Positions 38-8,302 of a stretch of 10,374 nt of DNA are shown here, one piece after another (the stretch's first letter is position 1; every line of letters begins with the position of its first letter). Under the pieces are notes generated by a model. It saw only the letters and a program-made list of their open reading frames with translations. It was not told the DNA's origin and searched no databases. The translations under genes and the position numbers were made by a program. Source of the stretch: a virus; the UHGV virus genome UHGV-0314755. The stretch is one strand, 5' to 3'.

Positions 38-2170
38 ATGGGGCAGCAAGCATGGATAGGAAATATCGCTCAAAAATACAACGAGTTTCTTCAGGTTAAT
101 GGAGAGCCAGGGGATCTTGGTGGTGTGAGTCGTGCAATATCACATGGTAATTCATTGGATGCTCGTGGTTTACGTAATAATAACCCTGGTAATATTGAAG
201 CGAGCAAATCTAACCCGTGGGAAGGTCAGATCGGTAGCGATGGACGTTTTGCAACGTTTGCTACCCCTGAGCATGGAATCCGCGCGTTGGGTAAAAATAT
301 GTTGTCTTACCAGCGTCAAGGCTATGACACCGTTAGCGAGATTGTTAATCGCTATGCTCCGGCTAGTGATGGTAATAATACTGATGCTTATATTAGGGCA
401 TTGTGTGGTGAGCTTGGTGTTGGGGAGAATGATCAGCTTGATATCTCTAACCCAAAGACACTAGCTGCTTTATGTGCTGGGATTATTAAACACGAAAATG
501 GCAGTATGCCTTATAGCACCGAACAGCTTGAAACTGGTATCTCGGCAGCCCTTGGTCTAACTAACCTTGATTCACCTAAGCGTTATACGGGCAATGCGGC
601 ATTTGATGCTATGAGCCCTCAAATGCAAATACAGGCATTGAGGCAGGCTAATGAGCTGAGAAATCAGTACCGCCAGCAGTATGCGGACCAGCTTAGCACC
701 GTAGTTAAAGATGCATATTCAGCCCTTGATGAAGGATTGAAACCTGAGAAGTTACCTTCTGAGGACGATTTTATCCGGGCCAATGGTCCGCGCATTGGCG
801 CTATGAAGTGGAAGGATATGCAGGCGCAGATACAATATGGAGGTGTCATTGGTGCCGCTAAAGACCTCACTCCAGAAGGACGACAAGACATTCTTGAACG
901 TTTACGTCCACAGGATCCAAACGCTCCTGGATTTGCTGCTAACCAGCAACGCTGGGAGAAAATGCAGGCCAAATTTAAAGAGATGGATAGGGAGTGGGAG
1001 ATTCAGCAGGGAAGAAACAGGTTCGTGTCTTCAATGCAAAATAACTTCCCGCTGGACCCGAACGACAAAAACAATCAGGCAGCGGTAGACCGTTATTTCG
1101 CGCAGGATATCGCGCCTTCGTTTTCCATATCTGATCCGCAGAGCATCAATACACTGGTCACCGTCACAACTAAAAGCGGCATGATACCAACTCAGGTTAA
1201 AACAATGCTTAACAGTGGAGCAACATCAAGAGATCCTGCGCTGGTTGTCCCGATGGCAAAATTCTACGGTCAGTTATTCGATAATAATCCGGCGGCAGCG
1301 GCAACACTTGATAAAAGTACGATGGCATTTTACGGCAAGGTTTACGATTATTCCCGCGCTGGCGTGCCGGAGGATAAGGCTGTTGATATGGCTTACAGCC
1401 AGGTGTTCCAACAGGATGACCGAATGAAACAGATGCTTTCCACTGCCATGCGAGACAAAAAATATGTCGCGGCGAGGGCAACTGCTGCACAAAATAACGC
1501 CAGCAGTCTGACTTCCTTTGGTTCGTGGTCTCCGGATATTACCGATCCAGGAAAATCAAATGCGGCCTATCAGCGAGATTACCAGACAATTTACGATGCT
1601 AACTTTGTACAGACAGGTGGCGATGCAGAACAGGCTGAGAAAATGACCAATGCCATGATCAGAACCACCTGGGGAGTTTCTACGGTTAATGGCAAAGCAG
1701 AGGTTATGAAGTATGCACCTGAGGCATTGTACGGAGTAAATAATGGTGCTGGTAACTGGATACAGGGGCAGTGGGAGCAGGAAAAACGCGAGCTTAAATC
1801 AAAATCCTTTGGCGGTCCTCGCAGTGATACGGACTTAATACTTGTTTCTGATGGCCTTACGGCAAGGGATAGGAGTTATGCTGTTATGGTTTTACAGCCT
1901 GACGCAAACGGAGCGATAGAACCGAGAAATTATATTGGAGAAAATGGTCTCCCTGTTCGTTTCAAGCCGGATCAACTGACATCTCCAATGTACAGGCAAA
2001 CCATTCAGTTACAGCAACAGCGTGTTGATGAGGCTAGAGTGCGGAGAGAAGGCAATCCGCTGCCGCAGTTCAGCAATAAAGATGGATATACTCCTCCAGA
2101 TCTGACCAAACCATTCGGTTATGGTTCAGCCAATTACCTTCCGAGCAATATATACGCAGGGGGCAAATAA
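38..2170 (+). CDS. Phage internal virion / DNA-ejection (core) protein, 710 aa; the start may lie upstream of the window
   Basis: Long ORF with enteric-like composition. ATG at 38 is preceded by AAGGA (29-33), but the reading frame stays open back to base 2, so a 5' extension beyond the window cannot be excluded. Stop TAA (2168-2170) overlaps the next gene's ATG (TAATG), indicating translational coupling within a structural operon. Position just before a tailspike gene and size are typical of podovirus ejection/core proteins. The N-terminal ~100 aa contains a conserved-looking block (RGLRNNNPGNIE...GSDGRFATFATPEHGIRA). Product assignment is inference from context. Confidence 0.75.
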   Translation: MGQQAWIGNIAQKYNEFLQVNGEPGDLGGVSRAISHGNSLDARGLRNNNPGNIEASKSNPWEGQIGSDGRFATFATPEHGIRALGKNMLSYQRQGYDTVSEIVNRYAPASDGNNTDAYIRALCGELGVGENDQLDISNPKTLAALCAGIIKHENGSMPYSTEQLETGISAALGLTNLDSPKRYTGNAAFDAMSPQMQIQALRQANELRNQYRQQYADQLSTVVKDAYSALDEGLKPEKLPSEDDFIRANGPRIGAMKWKDMQAQIQYGGVIGAAKDLTPEGRQDILERLRPQDPNAPGFAANQQRWEKMQAKFKEMDREWEIQQGRNRFVSSMQNNFPLDPNDKNNQAAVDRYFAQDIAPSFSISDPQSINTLVTVTTKSGMIPTQVKTMLNSGATSRDPALVVPMAKFYGQLFDNNPAAAATLDKSTMAFYGKVYDYSRAGVPEDKAVDMAYSQVFQQDDRMKQMLSTAMRDKKYVAARATAAQNNASSLTSFGSWSPDITDPGKSNAAYQRDYQTIYDANFVQTGGDAEQAEKMTNAMIRTTWGVSTVNGKAEVMKYAPEALYGVNNGAGNWIQGQWEQEKRELKSKSFGGPRSDTDLILVSDGLTARDRSYAVMVLQPDANGAIEPRNYIGENGLPVRFKPDQLTSPMYRQTIQLQQQRVDEARVRREGNPLPQFSNKDGYTPPDLTKPFGYGSANYLPSNIYAGGK

Positions 2171-5100
2171 TGCCGATATATGAACAGAATCCTAAAGAGT
2201 TGCTTGGCGAGGATATTCAGCAAATAGCAGCACCTGATGACAGTAATTTCTATATGGAAACACCTTCTTTGCTTTCTGCTGTGAACCCATTTACCAGTGA
2301 TCAACGCGTTCAAAGGTCTAGACAAGCAGCATTTCGTATAGATAACACGCTGGGTAGCTTTATTGCCAGTGCTCCTTTCAGTCAGTTTGACAGGGTTGAA
2401 GGATATAACCCATTTGATAACGATGCAGCAGATATTAAAGGCTATGAAGATTTTGCAGATTCGTTTATCAACTCCGGTTCGCATGAAGAAACAATGGCAA
2501 TTAAACATCGAATCGATAAGCAAAGAACAGATAGAGAATATCTATCTGAAATGGGTGGTGCTGGTACTATTTCAAGCTTAGCAATGGGAATGATAGACCC
2601 GGTTAATGTGGCTGCAATGTTCATCCCTGTAGGGGCGGTAGCGCGTGGAGGAAGTATTGCTGAGACGGCAGGGCGTTTTGCCCTAGCGAATGCTGCTGGT
2701 GGGGGAGTATCAGAAGCCGCATTACAGGCCACTCAGGAAGCTCGCTCACCGATGGAGAGCGTATCGAACGTTGTTGTTGATGCTCTCGTTGGTGGGATCC
2801 TTGGTGCTGGTGCACAGCTACTTGCTGGACCTAGCGCGCGCGAGGCAGTGGTTAACTCAGTAGGTAATCATTTGCGAGGTATGGATTCTCCTCAAAGCAT
2901 TGGTGCAGCTCAGGTTTTCAATACCACACTCGATCAGGAACAGCTCGCTGGACTTGGACTTGCTAACAAAACGTTGAGTGTCACTCCTGCTGGCCGCTTG
3001 GCTCAATCACCATCTCTTGTCTCCCGTCAGATTAACCAGCAGCTTGCCGAAAATAACTATTTCTTCGCCAAAAATGATGAGGGGTTGGCTACGTTTACGG
3101 CAGTCGAGACTAAGATTAAGCAATACGACGCCATGCTTTATAAGCAGATGGAAGCCACTCGTGATGCTTACCAGCAGTACAGCAAATCTGTTAGCGCCCG
3201 CGGCGTGAAGAGGATGAGCTTTATTGATTTCAATGAAGCTGTTGGCATGGCTATGCGCCGTGGTGATCAGAGTGATATTCCTGAGGTTTCACAAGCAGCC
3301 GCCAGAATCCGCCCCATTTTCGAGACCACAAAAGCCCGTATGCAGGAACTGGGGATCCTTCCTGAGGATATCGATGTCGTGACGGCGAAAAGTTATCTTC
3401 CCCGCATTTATAAGTTCGATAAGATACTTTCCGACCGCACTGAATTCAGAGGGCGAATTGCCAACTGGATACAAGGGATTAGTGCCAAAGGTGCTGACAA
3501 AGCAGGTCAGCGAATTGAAAGGATAAATTCATTGCTAAAAACTGCAGAGGAATCGGCACCGCGCGCTGATGCTCTCGCTAGTGAAATCGCTGAAGCGGAG
3601 AAATGGTCTGGTAAAAAAATTCTACTTATGGAAGAACTGGATAAACGAAATAAGCTTATATCTCAGGAGACTGACACACAGGCGCGTCTTACAAGAATAG
3701 AAAAAGAGTTGGCCGAGACTTCATCAGAAAAACTTCAGGCAAGAATGATGAAAGAAAGCTCTGACCTTAAAACACGCCTTGATGATATAGCGCAGGCAAA
3801 GAGTGAGCTTCCTGTCTATCAGCGCCATATGGAGTTGCTGGATAATCCACGGAAATATCGTTCTGAGCTTCGCCGACTGCAAAAACGGGCAAATTCAACC
3901 ACAAGGCTGAATGCAAGCCGCGAACGAGCACTGAAGCAGATGGAGCCTCTATCCCGAGAGGAAGCAGAGGACGCTGCTGACGAGATCGTGAATAAAATAA
4001 TAGGCGCACCTTCCGGGCTTGTACCAGCCGATATTATCCCAGAGAGACTCGTTGGTCGGGCTGGTTTCACTAAAAGCAGAACGCTGCTTATTCCTGATGA
4101 GCGTATAGAAGATTTTCTTGAATCAGATGTTAACTACATCATGGAAAGTTATCTCCGGCAGGTGGCACCAGAAATTGAGCTGACTGCGCAGTTTGGCCGT
4201 AAAGATATGGGGGAGCAAATCCGTCAGGTTAGTGAGGAATATACCCGGCTAATAAAAGAGGCTAAAACACCTAAACGACGTGCAGTTCTTGAGAAGCAAC
4301 GGGAGGCTGATATTAGGGATATTACGGCTATGCGTGATCGACTGCTTGGTACTTACGGTGCACCTCAAGATCCACGCAGTTTCTTTGTTCGTGCCGGGCG
4401 AGTTGCTAGGAATATTAACTTCCTCCGTTTGCTTGGTGGAATGACTGTCTCCGCTGCAACTGATCTGATGCGACCGATGATGCAGCATGGCCTGAGAAAA
4501 TCTCTCGGACCAATGGTAAGCATGCTTAAAAATATGGACTCAGTGAAAATTGCAACCAGGGATTTGCGAGAAATGGCCGTTGGGCTTGATTATGTCCTGT
4601 CTACGCGTACAAAGGCTATAGCGGATCTTACTGACCCCTATAGCCGGAGAAGCGCCGCTGAGCGAGGTCTGAACTGGATGACGCAGAAATTCGGTAACTG
4701 GACGCTGATGAATCAGTGGAACAGCGCACTTAAATCATGGTCCGGGATGATAGTGCAGTCGAGGATACTTGACGCGGCTCGCCAAGTTTCTGCTGGTGGC
4801 ACGCTCTCCAAAAGTGAAATGCGGAAGATGGCACAGGTCGGCATCAATGAAGATGTTCTGCGCCGAATCGGGGAGCAATTCGGGAAGCACGGAGAGGATA
4901 TGGACGGGCTGTTAACCGGGCATAGTCATCTGTGGGATGACCGTTTCGCTAGAGAGATTTTCCAGTCTGCAGTGCTGAAAGATGTAGACTCAGTGATTGT
5001 AACGCCTGGCGTAGGTGATACACCGCTGTTTTTTAGTAAAGAAGGCTGGAAGATGATCACGCAGTTCAAAACGTTTATCTTCGCACAGCATAACAGGGTG

Positions 5101-5559
5101 CTAGTATCTGGTATCCAGCAGGGCGATGCTGCATTCTATCTTGGTGCGCTTGGCACGATTGCGCTTGGCTCAATGGTCTATATGATGAAACAGAAGTTAA
5201 GCGGTCGCGATATCGACTACAGCTGGAATAACCTTGTGAAAGAGGGGATCGACCGGGGCGGAATGCTTGGCTGGCTCTCTGAGCCGCTGAATACCGTTGA
5301 GAACATAAGCGGCGGTAGGTTTGGTCTTGGCGCGATGTTTGGTGCGCCTCCGGTATCAAGGTTTCAGAGTCGTAATGCTATTGGTGCTTTACTTGGTCCT
5401 ACCTTTGATCTTGGCGGTGATGCCGCGACGGTTGCGAATGGTGTACTTAACGGAGAATTTGACAGCCAGCAAACCCACGCGGTCCGTAAAATGCTACCTT
5501 TTCAGAACCTGTGGGCGATATCACCGTTACTAAATAAAGTTGAAGAGCAGATGAAATAG
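2170..5559 (+). CDS. Large phage internal virion / ejection protein (ejectosome or tail-hub-like), 1129 aa
   Basis: ATG at 2170 overlaps the upstream stop; SD AGGGGG (2158-2163) with a 6-nt spacer. The protein has Gly/Ala-rich hydrophobic segments (about aa 128-215, e.g. GGAGTISSLAMGMIDPVNVAAMFIPVGAVARGG and VVVDALVGGILGAGAQLLAG), a long charged heptad-like region (about aa 435-610, rich in E/K/R/L/Q) and a second hydrophobic patch near aa 990-1020. This composition is typical of channel-forming ejection proteins. Function is inferred, not shown by search. Confidence 0.8.
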   Translation: MPIYEQNPKELLGEDIQQIAAPDDSNFYMETPSLLSAVNPFTSDQRVQRSRQAAFRIDNTLGSFIASAPFSQFDRVEGYNPFDNDAADIKGYEDFADSFINSGSHEETMAIKHRIDKQRTDREYLSEMGGAGTISSLAMGMIDPVNVAAMFIPVGAVARGGSIAETAGRFALANAAGGGVSEAALQATQEARSPMESVSNVVVDALVGGILGAGAQLLAGPSAREAVVNSVGNHLRGMDSPQSIGAAQVFNTTLDQEQLAGLGLANKTLSVTPAGRLAQSPSLVSRQINQQLAENNYFFAKNDEGLATFTAVETKIKQYDAMLYKQMEATRDAYQQYSKSVSARGVKRMSFIDFNEAVGMAMRRGDQSDIPEVSQAAARIRPIFETTKARMQELGILPEDIDVVTAKSYLPRIYKFDKILSDRTEFRGRIANWIQGISAKGADKAGQRIERINSLLKTAEESAPRADALASEIAEAEKWSGKKILLMEELDKRNKLISQETDTQARLTRIEKELAETSSEKLQARMMKESSDLKTRLDDIAQAKSELPVYQRHMELLDNPRKYRSELRRLQKRANSTTRLNASRERALKQMEPLSREEAEDAADEIVNKIIGAPSGLVPADIIPERLVGRAGFTKSRTLLIPDERIEDFLESDVNYIMESYLRQVAPEIELTAQFGRKDMGEQIRQVSEEYTRLIKEAKTPKRRAVLEKQREADIRDITAMRDRLLGTYGAPQDPRSFFVRAGRVARNINFLRLLGGMTVSAATDLMRPMMQHGLRKSLGPMVSMLKNMDSVKIATRDLREMAVGLDYVLSTRTKAIADLTDPYSRRSAAERGLNWMTQKFGNWTLMNQWNSALKSWSGMIVQSRILDAARQVSAGGTLSKSEMRKMAQVGINEDVLRRIGEQFGKHGEDMDGLLTGHSHLWDDRFAREIFQSAVLKDVDSVIVTPGVGDTPLFFSKEGWKMITQFKTFIFAQHNRVLVSGIQQGDAAFYLGALGTIALGSMVYMMKQKLSGRDIDYSWNNLVKEGIDRGGMLGWLSEPLNTVENISGGRFGLGAMFGAPPVSRFQSRNAIGALLGPTFDLGGDAATVANGVLNGEFDSQQTHAVRKMLPFQNLWAISPLLNKVEEQMK

Positions 5560-6000
5560 CTATTCACAATTAGTGATGGCGTATGTATCAAATATATTGC
5601 CATCACTAAATACATACCTATACTCAATCTCTCCGCCAAGGTGAATAAATGCTTTCATTTGCCTGTTGGAGCAAATGCTCGATTTTGAATAATTTCGCAT
5701 TACACTCTTTAATTTATTTTCTAAGGTTACATCACCATTATAAACTTTTGATAAATAGCTGTTGTTGTAATTAAGATGCGCTACAACTAAGAGTTTGTTT
5801 AGTATTGCATTTATTGAAACAATAGACATATTATCATTCAATTTTATGGGAAGTGACTTTCCTGCTTCTGATGCAATTTTGTTTGCATGTGCACACATAT
5901 CCTCATTTATTAAATTCTTAAAACATATGTCGTTTGCAAACGAAAAAATTGGTAGGATAAACAAAACGGTAGCTGTAATAGCGTGCATCGGCTTAATCAT
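5560..6000 (-). CDS. Small secreted (periplasmic) protein of unknown function, 146 aa; AT-rich cargo gene
   Basis: Only long ORF in a strongly AT-rich segment. N-terminus MIKPMHAITATVLFILPIFSFA/ND has the shape of a Sec signal peptide (positive n-region, hydrophobic core, A-x-A-like cleavage site). The mature part has 4 Cys and is N/K/I/S-rich. An AAGG motif lies 7 nt upstream of the ATG at 6000 (minus strand). The stop (5560-5562) abuts the stop of the 1129-aa gene on the other strand. No recognised family. Confidence 0.5.
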   Translation of the reverse strand: MIKPMHAITATVLFILPIFSFANDICFKNLINEDMCAHANKIASEAGKSLPIKLNDNMSIVSINAILNKLLVVAHLNYNNSYLSKVYNGDVTLENKLKSVMRNYSKSSICSNRQMKAFIHLGGEIEYRYVFSDGNIFDTYAITNCE

Positions 6001-6012
6001 TAGGTGACCTTT

Positions 6013-6462
6013 ATGTTCAAGAAGATGATCAACAGATTAATCGGTGGTAAGGAGGTTAGCAATAAAATTCAACCTCTTATCTTTAAGGATAACTTTTCAG
6101 CTTTTGAGTATGCGTGTAAGTATCTTGACACAAGCCTTTCAGCCAATAAACCAATGCCAGCCATCATCATACCTGGTCCCAGTGGGGAACAGCCAGTTTT
6201 GCTGGATTCTGGAAGACAAAGGGCAATGCTGAAGGTGTGCTCAGCTGATGGTGGATTTTTTGTTATTGCCGATTCATCTTACAGCAAAGGACCAAAGCTG
6301 AGGATTGGTGATCTTGTTGCTTGGTTGCCTGTGAGTTATGCCGAAGAATTAACGGATAAAATAGAAGATCCTCGCTCCGCTATGGTTGGCTTTATATTGG
6401 GAACCATTCATCCTGAACTAACATCTACTGGCTGGAAGGGTAAAGAAAGATTTCGCAAGTAG
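6013..6462 (+). CDS. Hypothetical cytoplasmic protein, 149 aa (cargo gene)
   Basis: ORF open from GTG 6004; the preferred start is ATG 6013, with SD AGGTGA (6002-6007) and a 5-nt spacer. Ends TAG at 6460-6462 and is followed immediately by an intrinsic terminator. No TM segment or signal peptide. No recognisable family by eye. Confidence 0.6.
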   Translation: MFKKMINRLIGGKEVSNKIQPLIFKDNFSAFEYACKYLDTSLSANKPMPAIIIPGPSGEQPVLLDSGRQRAMLKVCSADGGFFVIADSSYSKGPKLRIGDLVAWLPVSYAEELTDKIEDPRSAMVGFILGTIHPELTSTGWKGKERFRK

Positions 6463-6475
6463 CGTGACATGTCAC

Positions 6476-6500
6476 AGGCCGCTTTCGCGGCCTTGTTTTT
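6476..6500 (+). terminator. Rho-independent terminator for the plus-strand transcript (after the 149-aa gene)
   Basis: 7-bp GC-rich stem AGGCCGC/GCGGCCT with loop TTTC (6476-6493), followed by TGTTTTT (6494-6500). It is preceded by a perfect 12-bp palindrome, GTGACATGTCAC (6464-6475). Confidence 0.7.
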
Positions 6501-6537
6501 AACGAATGCCACCGCCGCCCGGGTGGGAATCCGCAGA

Positions 6538-6563
6538 CACAAAAAAGCCCGCGCCGCGGGCTT
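6538..6563 (-). terminator. Rho-independent terminator for the minus-strand transcript (after the 210-aa gene); with the previous feature it forms a convergent terminator pair
   Basis: Palindrome AAGCCCGCG-C-CGCGGGCTT (6545-6563) followed on the minus strand by a T-run (plus-strand AAAAAA at 6541-6546). It lies 4 nt downstream of the TAA stop of the 210-aa gene (6567-6569, minus). Confidence 0.7.
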
Positions 6564-6566
6564 CTA

Positions 6567-7199
6567 TTAATGCAGTTTATCTTTGCTTATAACCAGTAGT
6601 CTGTGGGTATGCACATCTTTATCACTGCCCCAACAGAAATCAGCCCACTGGCTATAGAAATCATCCCATGATGTCATGAAGCTAAGAGGTCTATCTTCTT
6701 CAGAGCCATCTGAAACGTATACATTATATCCCGGGGTGTTTATAGCCCAAGAAATCATTCTTTCCCAGAATCTTCTCCCATCGATTGTTTGTTGCTCATC
6801 AGATACAACGATCGCATATTGCTCTAGGAAGAACTGAAAAAAAATCTGAGGCAAACCATGAACAGCACGGTCATGAATAACATTAGGCGTACGCCATACC
6901 ATGATCTGCGTACATGTTCTTTTGGCTTCGACGATATCTTCCCGAAAGATTAACTTAACCGCATACACCGTTTCTGGAGTATCGCTGGTAGTAATCATTC
7001 TGTAATGATCGCCATTACAAGATTTTACAAGGCGATAACCATAAGGTGTTGTGAATCCCGGAAGAACGAAATCAACCACACCTTTCGCTAAGTAGCTTTC
7101 GGTGTGACTAGTGTTCTTCTCAGACATGTTCAGTTTTCTATCGAAATCTGCTTCTGGGATAATGTATGGCATCGCTTTTCTTGTTGTATTTGTTTTCAT
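6567..7199 (-). CDS. Hypothetical protein, 210 aa (orphan cargo gene, Trp/aromatic-rich C-terminus)
   Basis: Strong SD GGGAGGA 5 nt upstream of ATG 7199 (minus strand). Clean ORF ending at a good terminator. No TM segment or signal peptide. Operator copy 1 (TTACC-N5-GGTAA) lies 60 bp upstream, overlapping a TAATAT -10-like hexamer. No family recognised; an R-x5-H motif (RTPNVIH) is noted but is too short to interpret. Confidence 0.7.
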   Translation of the reverse strand: MKTNTTRKAMPYIIPEADFDRKLNMSEKNTSHTESYLAKGVVDFVLPGFTTPYGYRLVKSCNGDHYRMITTSDTPETVYAVKLIFREDIVEAKRTCTQIMVWRTPNVIHDRAVHGLPQIFFQFFLEQYAIVVSDEQQTIDGRRFWERMISWAINTPGYNVYVSDGSEEDRPLSFMTSWDDFYSQWADFCWGSDKDVHTHRLLVISKDKLH

Positions 7200-7338: not shown

Positions 7339-8049
7339 TCAGAAGAACCCTGCCTTGTCGTTGATGTACTCCGCGTGCGTCTGGATATCACGCAGGCATT
7401 TGCTCACACCGACGATGTAGCAGAACATGGTGGTCAGCTCCGCCGCCGCGCCCGATACGTCGTGCCCGTCTTCCTGTAACTGGTTCAGCAGATTCATCAG
7501 CAGTGAGTTTTCCGTCAGGCCGAGAACACCAGACGGAGAATGAATCAGGCTGCGGTAGCCGGGCTTCAGTGGGGCGCTGTAGGTTTTGTTCTCTATCTTC
7601 ATTGCCTGCATCACTGCTGATGCTGTGGCGTTGGCTACCTGGTCGGCAACCATCTTTATGCGTTCTTCCTGCGGGAGCGAGTTTTTAATGTAACTTCCTG
7701 TGCGGCGGATCTGAGGAAGAACCTCACCTGTAACCCATTTACGAAAGCGGTAGGGGATAGTGCCTGGTGTTACTGCATCGCGGCAGCGGAGGATCAGTGT
7801 GTAGAGGCCTGACTCGGAGATGATGTTGATCTCTTTTACTCGGCTGTCAAAAATTGCACGATGTTCATGCCCTATGTTGAACATAGACCTTTCATCATCA
7901 TCCAGTTTTTCAAGTGATTGGGTGACGTTTTGGATACGCAGCGCACTACAAACGTCTTGGGCTACAAACCATGGTTGGCCATCGATAATGATGGAACGGA
8001 TAGGGTTAACAGATTCAAATTTGAAGATGGCAGTTTGAGCATTAGCCAT
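7339..8049 (-). CDS. ant: Phage antirepressor, 236 aa: Bro-N-type N-terminal domain plus Ant-type C-terminal domain
   Basis: N-terminus MANAQTAIFKFESVNPIRSIIIDGQPWFVAQDVCSALRI matches the Bro-N / P22-antirepressor N-terminal signature (F.F....IR....DG.PWFVA.DVC..L). Preferred start is ATG 8049, with SD GGAGA and an 8-nt spacer; the ORF track's extension to 8064 uses a GTG with no SD. The C-terminal ~65 aa are about 45% identical to the 85-aa protein encoded at 8365-8622. Confidence 0.85.
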   Translation of the reverse strand: MANAQTAIFKFESVNPIRSIIIDGQPWFVAQDVCSALRIQNVTQSLEKLDDDERSMFNIGHEHRAIFDSRVKEINIISESGLYTLILRCRDAVTPGTIPYRFRKWVTGEVLPQIRRTGSYIKNSLPQEERIKMVADQVANATASAVMQAMKIENKTYSAPLKPGYRSLIHSPSGVLGLTENSLLMNLLNQLQEDGHDVSGAAAELTTMFCYIVGVSKCLRDIQTHAEYINDKAGFF

Positions 8050-8060
8050 GGTGGTTATCT

Positions 8061-8145
8061 CCACTTAGTGATTTTAATCACCACCGCAACGCCAATTACT
8101 GGTGGTGAACTGGACAAGGTTGGCGTACCGGCCTAAGTGGTACCG
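8061..8145 (-). promoter_or_regulatory. Candidate promoter/operator region of the antirepressor gene
   Basis: Minus-strand -10-like TAAAAT (8076-8071), about 20 nt upstream of the ant start region. An 8-bp inverted repeat, TCACCACC (8078-8085) / GGTGGTGA (8101-8108), sits over the -35 region. The 8-mer CCACTTAG occurs at 8061-8068 and 8234-8241, and inverted (CTAAGTGG) at 8133-8140. GTACCGGC is directly repeated at 8125-8132 and 8140-8147. Promoter assignment is tentative. Confidence 0.35.
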
Positions 8146-8205
8146 GCGTCCTTTCGGACCCCTGCCCAGCCCACCATAATTCGGATATAGCTGTGCTTAA
8201 CGCAT

Positions 8206-8228
8206 AAAAAAACCACGTCTGGCGTGGT
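8206..8228 (-). terminator. Rho-independent terminator on the minus strand, between the small Ant-like gene and the antirepressor gene
   Basis: Minus strand reads ACCACG-CCAGA-CGTGGT followed by TTTTTTT (plus-strand A7 at 8206-8212). It lies downstream of two further hairpins (8247-8262 and 8262-8283). Confidence 0.55.
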
Positions 8229-8302
8229 ATGCGCCACTTAGTAACTCGGGACGCCAATCCCGGCACTGGATTTTGCCAGTGCCCGATTACTATGGCACAA
8301 GA

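Follow-up and report, generated by a model that had tools for sequence, protein, structure and literature searches.

What could a small secreted protein do at the very end of a phage structural operon, when it is encoded on the opposite strand and its stop codon touches that of a virion gene? The question is raised by a gene in a stretch of viral DNA of 10,374 nucleotides (UHGV virus genome UHGV-0314755; hereafter, the window), which is an epsilon15/phiV10-like E. coli prophage. A sequence-only reading had described there an AT-rich gene for a small exported Cys-containing protein, placed tail-to-tail against the structural operon, and had suggested a superinfection-exclusion factor, an inhibitor of an injected lysozyme or ejection protein, or a virulence-associated protein. 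The description itself proved accurate. The gene (5560–6000, minus strand) starts with ATG and encodes 146 aa at 32% GC, and its GC fraction of 0.30–0.32 stands against 0.47–0.52 in the flanking structural genes. The plus-strand TAG of a 1129-aa gene (5557–5559) is followed directly by the minus-strand stop CTA (5560–5562), so that the two convergent genes abut at TAG/CTA (5557–5562) with a gap of 0 nt.

The open reading frame is not a chance product, because a stop would be expected about every 13 codons at its base composition, dN/dS is only 0.15–0.23 against four homologues with 64–82% amino-acid identity, and each of the nine near-identical copies inspected (L001, L002, and L028–L034) has the frame intact. 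The 146-aa gene, annotated as a RefSeq CDS (WP_000595048.1), is thus real and under purifying selection. Homologues in seven other loci (L003, L007, L015, L018, L019, L021, and L024) all have 29–36% GC. The genomes of Serratia and Klebsiella are GC-rich, and the constant low GC of the homologues suggests selection on composition, such as H-NS-type silencing or residues rich in N, K, and I, over recent import.

The encoded protein carries the sequence hallmarks of the disulfide-bonded periplasmic type that had been proposed for it. A hydrophobicity scan marks residues 1–22 (MIKPMHAITATVLFILPIFSFA, encoded at 5935–6000 on the minus strand) as a signal peptide of the Sec/SPase I type. The N-terminus, MIKPMHAITATVLFILPIFSFA followed by ND, has Lys3, a hydrophobic core with a best 10-residue Kyte-Doolittle window of 2.68, and S-F-A at positions −3 to −1. 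The signal ends in FSFA/NDIC and has no lipobox (L-x-[GAS]-C), and the protein is without a second hydrophobic segment; in its mature part, Kyte-Doolittle windows of 19 residues reach at most 1.64. The predicted mature protein (residues 23–146, encoded at 5563–5934 on the minus strand) would comprise 124 aa and 14.0 kDa and contain all four Cys of the protein. These four residues, C26, C36, C110, and C145, are invariant in an alignment of 57 relatives, together with P51, G122, and G123. From these features we infer that the protein is exported and that C26/C36 and C110/C145 form two disulfides.

To which family could such a protein belong? Neither Pfam nor NCBIfam gave a significant match for the protein or its neighbours; those to Ntox35 (E 0.056) and small_PFL1563 (E 0.04) were dismissed as noise. 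No defence HMM of PADLOC-DB matched the protein or its four neighbours at E ≤ 1, and tblastn against 50,697 sequenced phage records returned no match to it. The sole match in PHROGs was a family of unknown function (phrog_8772, 'hypothetical', E 2e-79). Scanning the GTDB species-representative genomes with alignment A1 produced pattern matches with zero confirmed relatives. A word-indexed search found nine clusters, out to Klebsiella (74% identity) and Providencia (37%), and an exhaustive HMM search found about 306 clusters at E ≤ 1e-3, 165 of which lie at E ≤ 1e-10. Most listed members are uncharacterised proteins of 140–150 aa, and the named ones, from Morganella, Proteus, Serratia, Yersinia, and Roseobacter, are all called 'hypothetical'. 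An N-terminal hydrophobic signal-like segment is found in 109 of the 124 short members, and a lipobox-like string in six only. Fusions to Sel1/TPR, AMIN, or LprI domains, all of them envelope modules, occur in a few members; the family domain may therefore be of general use as a binding module in the periplasm.

The predicted structure connects this family to a known fold. In the AlphaFold2 model, residues 30–146 have pLDDT above 90 and run from a helix through three strands and three helices to two strands (a-b3-a3-b2). Only three Foldseek matches fell below 1e-3, namely PA3611 (5e-8, TM 0.80), V. vulnificus EpsS (6e-7), and AspS (3e-6); among the BFVD viral structures, none fell below E 0.01. 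The model also contains the AspS-type succession a1-b1-b2-b3-a2-a3-b4-b5(-a4), and on its basis the mature domain is predicted to have a pilotin-like (AspS/PA3611) alpha/beta fold. At the sequence level, three HMM profiles of growing breadth (8, 78, and 57 sequences) run against the PDB found no relevant match among solved structures and no relation to 3npd or 4ftf at E ≤ 1. The pilotin family PF16549 (T2SSS_2) did not match the protein at E ≤ 0.1, and one of 78 relatives touches it at E 0.0033, below the cut-off, compared with 1.3e-16 for E. coli YghG. The profile alignment with E. coli YghG by hhalign is weak and collinear (E 0.0014, probability 18%). It pairs the invariant LP motif and C110 with LPIK and Cys94 of YghG, in which a second Cys follows 37 residues on, C110 and C145 being spaced by 35. 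The equivalent pair in AspS forms a conserved disulfide (PMC3542185).

The protein nevertheless differs from the AspS/EpsS/YghG group (GspS-beta, PF16549) in several respects. It is predicted to be non-lipidated, whereas YghG has an LLSG/C lipobox; it has an extra N-terminal Cys pair; and its gene never lies beside T2SS genes, all 25 genomic contexts examined being phage or prophage. We therefore rejected a true T2SS pilotin, for which the lipobox, the PF16549 match, and the T2SS genes (0/25 contexts) are all missing. PA3611 of P. aeruginosa (PDB 3npd), the best Foldseek match, is closer: a signal without lipobox and an extra helix after beta-3 are common to both, and the 146-aa protein resembles PA3611 in being a secreted, non-lipidated protein with no assigned periplasmic function. 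PA3611 is, however, a chromosomal core gene of Pseudomonas, whereas the 146-aa gene belongs to a prophage. A hydrophobic crevice on AspS was proposed by its authors to bind the secretin S-domain, and PA3611, on whose surface a hydrophobic groove was described, was likewise proposed to bind secretins (PMC3542185). A surface similar to the AspS crevice could therefore be a binding site here.

The convergent 1129-aa gene (2170–5559, plus strand; phrog_342, 'internal virion protein') comes, in complete genomes, after the genes for a 'T7 gp14 family virion core protein' and an internal protein of about 915 aa in the same operon. A 710-aa ORF in the window corresponds to the C-terminal part of the latter, which has PHROG matches to endolysin and tail-injection transglycosylase families and an SLT/transglycosylase domain; PF01464 was detected on its counterparts in L015, L026, and L041. 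The 1129-aa protein is the last T7-type internal-virion (ejection) protein of the prophage.

We examined 25 contexts of family genes, with 25–100% amino-acid identity, in Escherichia, Klebsiella, Serratia, Yersinia, Providencia, and viral or metagenomic contigs. They cover the window, the IMG/VR loci L028–L035 and L039, and the metagenomic loci L015, L018, and L019 with the homologues of 64–82% identity; Klebsiella L007, Serratia L021, Yersinia L024 and L040, and Providencia L003 and L037; and also L036 (about 95% identical to the Morganella member P0023), L038, and the metagenomic loci L026, L027, L041, L042, and L043. In every one of the 25, the family gene adjoins the gene for the last large internal-virion protein (962–1244 aa), and in 23 it is convergent with it. 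The convergent gap is 0 nt in 16 contexts and 1–3 nt in three, with a 4-nt overlap in one (L041); it is 45–46 nt in two Providencia-type loci, and a small ORF lies between the genes in one locus. In L042 and L043, the family gene is co-directional, directly after the ejection genes in the late operon. The gene had been regarded as prophage cargo. Its linkage to the last ejection-protein gene, which holds in no fewer than five named genera, does not fit loose cargo and marks it as an old gene locked to this neighbour. Its upstream neighbour varies among the contexts. In Providencia and Yersinia, it is a divergent three-TM protein of 95–98 aa (phrog_3075; L003 7387–7674 and L024 5680–5976, minus strand). 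Another protein, of 212–215 aa with an N-terminal TM helix and C-terminal zinc ribbons, is encoded in L038 (4357–5004) and L041 (2658–3296), on the plus strand in both.

Within E. coli, the gene occupies a variable position. Accessory genes vary between the 1129-aa gene and the tailspike gene, and two flanks are conserved: the final 160 bases of the 1129-aa gene and a stretch of about 75 nt (6463–6537), annotated 'terminator' in phiV10. At least one conserved flank is present in 523 of 5,426 complete E. coli genomes, and a 903-bp cassette lies between the flanks in only 14 of these 523, which indicates that the phage can do without the 146-aa gene. This gene and a divergent 149-aa gene on the plus strand (6013–6462; WP_000473936.1, phrog_9944, function unassigned) make up the cassette. 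The two start codons are 12 nt apart, and the promoter of each gene must therefore lie inside or beyond the other. The AF2 model of the 149-aa protein is poor (pLDDT 52). A homologue of it (32% identity) is paired with the 146-aa homologue in Serratia, and it is absent beside the Klebsiella, Providencia, and Yersinia homologues. No direct or inverted repeats flanking the cassette and no tRNA were found.

Four other E. coli epsilon15-like prophages (L011–L014) carry in the same slot, corresponding to 5560–6462 of the window, the gene for an unrelated Cys-rich protein of 283 aa with a signal-peptide-like N-terminus (3662–4513, plus strand; phrog_6118; WP_001555613.1 in three and WP_000723561.1 in the fourth), co-directional with the late operon. 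Replacement of a related gene by the cassette was considered and rejected, the 283-aa protein having no similarity to either cassette protein. The slot seems to be reserved for exported proteins.

This position has a counterpart in P22, in which the order is gene 16 →, ← sieA ← orf59a ← mnt, arc → ant → and onward to the tailspike gene 9. SieA of P22 blocks DNA injection, the mutations that escape it map to the ejection proteins gp16 and gp20, and its homologues are always found between genes 16 and 9 (PMC10883804). The 146-aa gene has the same place, between the last ejection gene and the tailspike gene and convergent with the ejection gene; like sieA, it is prophage-borne, accessory, and AT-rich, and its presumed target would likewise be the ejection-protein conduit. 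The P22 sieA gene lies downstream of mnt in the immI region, and three lineages of the family have an mnt linkage as well: in Klebsiella L007–10, L027, and L041, a gene for an Mnt-like RHH protein is directly upstream of and co-directional with the family gene, with arc/ant divergent. The Klebsiella Mnt-like protein aligns to P22 Mnt at E 1e-8, and that of L041 matches Pfam Repressor_Mnt. In L041, the 212–215-aa zinc-ribbon protein is encoded between mnt and the family gene.

The window itself has no mnt and contains a P1-type C4/isrK-ant module. Just upstream of a Bro-N antirepressor gene (7339–8064) are a C4 antisense RNA (8098–8181; Rfam, 66 bits) and an isrK Hfq-binding RNA (8206–8282; Rfam, 67 bits), all on the minus strand, which together are a P1/P7-style c4-ant immunity module. 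The P22-style mnt/arc/ant genes of Klebsiella, L027, and L041 stand at the place of this module.

The two proteins are nonetheless different molecules. SieA crosses the inner membrane several times and carries a cytoplasmic FxRYPxEAxxFNK motif (PMC10883804), whereas the 146-aa protein is predicted by the model to be a soluble periplasmic alpha/beta domain with a cleaved signal. We detected no similarity to SieA (BLASTP E 13), and the motif is absent from the 146-aa protein; nor does this protein resemble SieA, T4 Sp, Imm, or other known exclusion proteins in sequence or fold. The phages differ as well, the P22-like hosts of SieA having gp7/20/16 and the phages with the 146-aa gene being epsilon15-like with T7-type core proteins. 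The 146-aa protein is thus a positional analogue, and probably a functional analogue, of SieA, but not its homologue.

Two long members of the family point to which ejection protein might be involved. P0023 of Morganella (290 aa, with the copy in L036 about 95% identical) and P0031 (287 aa, in L041) are composed of the family domain, a Pro-rich linker, an ejection-protein-like segment, and a C-terminal TM helix with a basic tail. The copied segment corresponds to residues ~60–120 of the ejection protein, with the motif GYNPF..GYE.FAD.FI.S.SPEET.AIK.RID. In the 1129-aa protein, BLASTP placed it at residues 66–119 (GYNPF..GYEDFADSFINSGSHEETMAIKHRID; 2365–2526, plus strand), with E 3e-10 for P0023 and 2e-12 for P0031, and the 290-aa Morganella-type member matched the 982-aa neighbour in L036 itself at E 4e-17. 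The homology of the segment is statistically robust. Copy and original are separated by about 3 kb and lie on opposite strands, and the copy has diverged to 36–50% identity; it is therefore old and maintained rather than an artefact of assembly or annotation. The copied segment, with the signal peptide before it and a positive-inside TM helix after it, is expected in the periplasm. Gly-rich hydrophobic segments follow about 12 residues after the motif in the ejection protein. By their sequence, the long variants look like a dominant-negative subunit of the ejection conduit, or a decoy, and we infer that residues 66–119 of the 1129-aa protein are the target or interaction module. The 146-aa protein of the window is the short form and lacks this segment.

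Under which conditions would the gene be expressed? The sequence-only reading had predicted expression in the lysogen and silencing by antisense late transcription during lytic growth. Between 5559 and a terminator-like hairpin at 6476–6493, which would end the plus-strand transcription coming from late-operon read-through and the 149-aa gene, we found no strong plus-strand terminator, only a weak 3-GC hairpin (5656–5677). A minus-strand terminator-like hairpin (6543–6565) would insulate the cassette from the upstream C4/isrK-ant operon. No sigma-70-like consensus promoter for the 146-aa gene was found on the minus strand of the window. A candidate seen in an alignment of six cassette variants, TTGCTA-17-TAATCT, is weak and lies inside coding sequence, and was not relied on. 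Expression in the lysogen with antisense silencing by late transcription is plausible by analogy, because of the mnt-linked relatives, the P22 precedent, and the lack of a strong terminator up to 6476. Such silencing is not a general property of the family, as the co-directional homologues of L042 and L043 are part of the late operon.

The most likely reading, to which we give about an even chance, is that the 146-aa protein acts as a soluble periplasmic analogue of SieA and disturbs the ejection apparatus of related superinfecting phages. The prophage would make the protein, in some lineages from the operon of the mnt maintenance repressor; the protein would be exported and oxidised and would wait in the periplasm. 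There it would bind or poison the T7-type ejection conduit (the gp14-like, transglycosylase, and 1129-aa proteins) of a superinfecting related phage, perhaps at a helix in one of these three proteins, and DNA entry would fail after adsorption. In the long members, the copy of the N-terminal ejection-protein segment with its membrane anchor would act as a decoy subunit. For this reading speak the position of the gene, the P22-like layout, the SieA precedent, the decoy variants, the fold, and the accessory status, since dispensability is what would be expected of an exclusion gene. Against it in the window speak the missing mnt and consensus promoter and the short form without decoy; further points against it are the two distant relatives co-directional with the late operon, the lack of similarity to known exclusion proteins, the absence from the 50,697 phage records, and the fusions to other domains elsewhere. 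Among the roles suggested beforehand, the comparative evidence favours an exclusion factor or an ejection inhibitor, and not a virulence factor. A more specific form of the proposal is tentative, and we lean against it: the family could be a new class of exclusion proteins for temperate podophages with T7-type cores, in which the pilotin-fold domain would capture a segment of the ejection conduit as pilotins bind the S-domain, the long forms being dominant-negative.

Exclusion might also work through the peptidoglycan hydrolase rather than the conduit. T4 Spackle (Sp) is a small signal-bearing periplasmic protein that excludes superinfecting phage via an injected virion protein, the gp5 lysozyme; it comes from a lytic phage and is expressed early. 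A Spackle-like inhibitor of the incoming SLT/transglycosylase, the penultimate ejection protein, would make the tail machine fail at the peptidoglycan. The predicted soluble periplasmic nature of the 146-aa protein, the neighbouring ejection protein with an SLT or lysozyme-type domain, and two members fused to an LprI/DUF1311 lysozyme-inhibitor domain would agree with it. The likeness to Spackle would be functional only, as the fold differs and Spackle is absent from the structural matches; there is no fold or sequence match to Ivy, PliC/MliC, or PliG either, the decoy copies the last ejection protein and not the hydrolase, and the family gene is linked to the last ejection gene and not to the SLT gene. 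We consider this mode of exclusion unlikely. A host-directed role in lysogenic conversion appears improbable: as a non-lipidated pilotin mimic on the S-domain of a secretin (T2SS GspD, type IV pilus, or filamentous-phage pIV), the protein would affect secretion or piliation, or shut out phages that depend on a secretin. The only structural relatives, AspS/EpsS and PA3611, lead in this direction, as do the weak collinear YghG match (hhalign E 0.0014, probability 18%), the relative touching PF16549 at E 0.003, and the proposed binding of PA3611 to secretins (PMC3542185). However, secretin mimicry leaves the decoy fusions unexplained, the hosts, in which the gene is linked to phage ejection genes, differ in their secretion systems, and neither a lipobox, T2SS neighbours, nor a Pfam pilotin match was found.

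A role in the lytic cycle instead of lysogen defence, in lysis or envelope modulation or in stopping the injection of progeny into infected cells, has in our estimate an equally small probability. The co-directionality of the homologues in L042 and L043, just after the ejection genes in the late operon, fits such a role at least as well as a role in the lysogen, and in most E. coli relatives the slot is filled by the secreted 283-aa protein, co-directional with the late operon. Yet 23 of the 25 contexts are convergent with that operon, three lineages have the gene in mnt operons, and the gene is dispensable in most related prophages. It is very improbable, finally, that the 146-aa and 149-aa genes are one toxin/immunity or abortive-infection pair, in which the secreted protein would have no function of its own. 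Both genes are swapped in together as the 903-bp cassette, their starts are 12–24 nt apart, the pair is kept from E. coli to Serratia at 37% and 32% identity, and there is the faint Ntox35 match (E 0.056). But the 149-aa gene is absent with the homologues of Klebsiella (74% identity), Providencia, Yersinia, L026, L027, and L041, the partner in L015 and L016 is called as a 78-aa product only, which suggests decay beside an intact 146-aa gene, and no PADLOC match was obtained.

Interference with ejection by a SieA analogue would belong to a known kind of system, the exclusion of superinfecting phages by a prophage from the sieA locus. For the family, the periplasmic location, the pilotin fold, and the decoy fusions, the libraries and literature searched yielded no described precedent. 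Little is understood so far about the way in which short-tailed phages form a DNA conduit through the Gram-negative envelope, and to our knowledge P22 SieA is the only dissected case of a prophage sabotaging the DNA conduit of a short-tailed phage. Belonging to a different phage group, the family could offer a counterpart that is soluble, modelled with confidence, and easy to purify, and the decoy fusions point to a segment of ~55 residues of the ejection protein as the interaction site. If the proposal is true, the decoy would show which part of a gp16-like protein is periplasmic and engaged in assembly. The proposal would also provide the first function for about 300 clusters of 'hypothetical' secreted proteins and extend the AspS/PA3611 pilotin fold to a second biological use, and the prophage determinant could limit phiV10-type phages in the detection or biocontrol of E. 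coli.

The region from the cassette to the tailspike is itself an accessory mosaic among near-identical prophages (6567–7199 of the window, minus strand, and L001, L002, L011, L019, L022, and L043). It contains genes for a YafO-family toxin, DUF4760, DUF2335, SocA/Panacea, and HigB-HigA, as well as a 210-aa phrog_1349 protein, and looks like a defence or moron hotspot.
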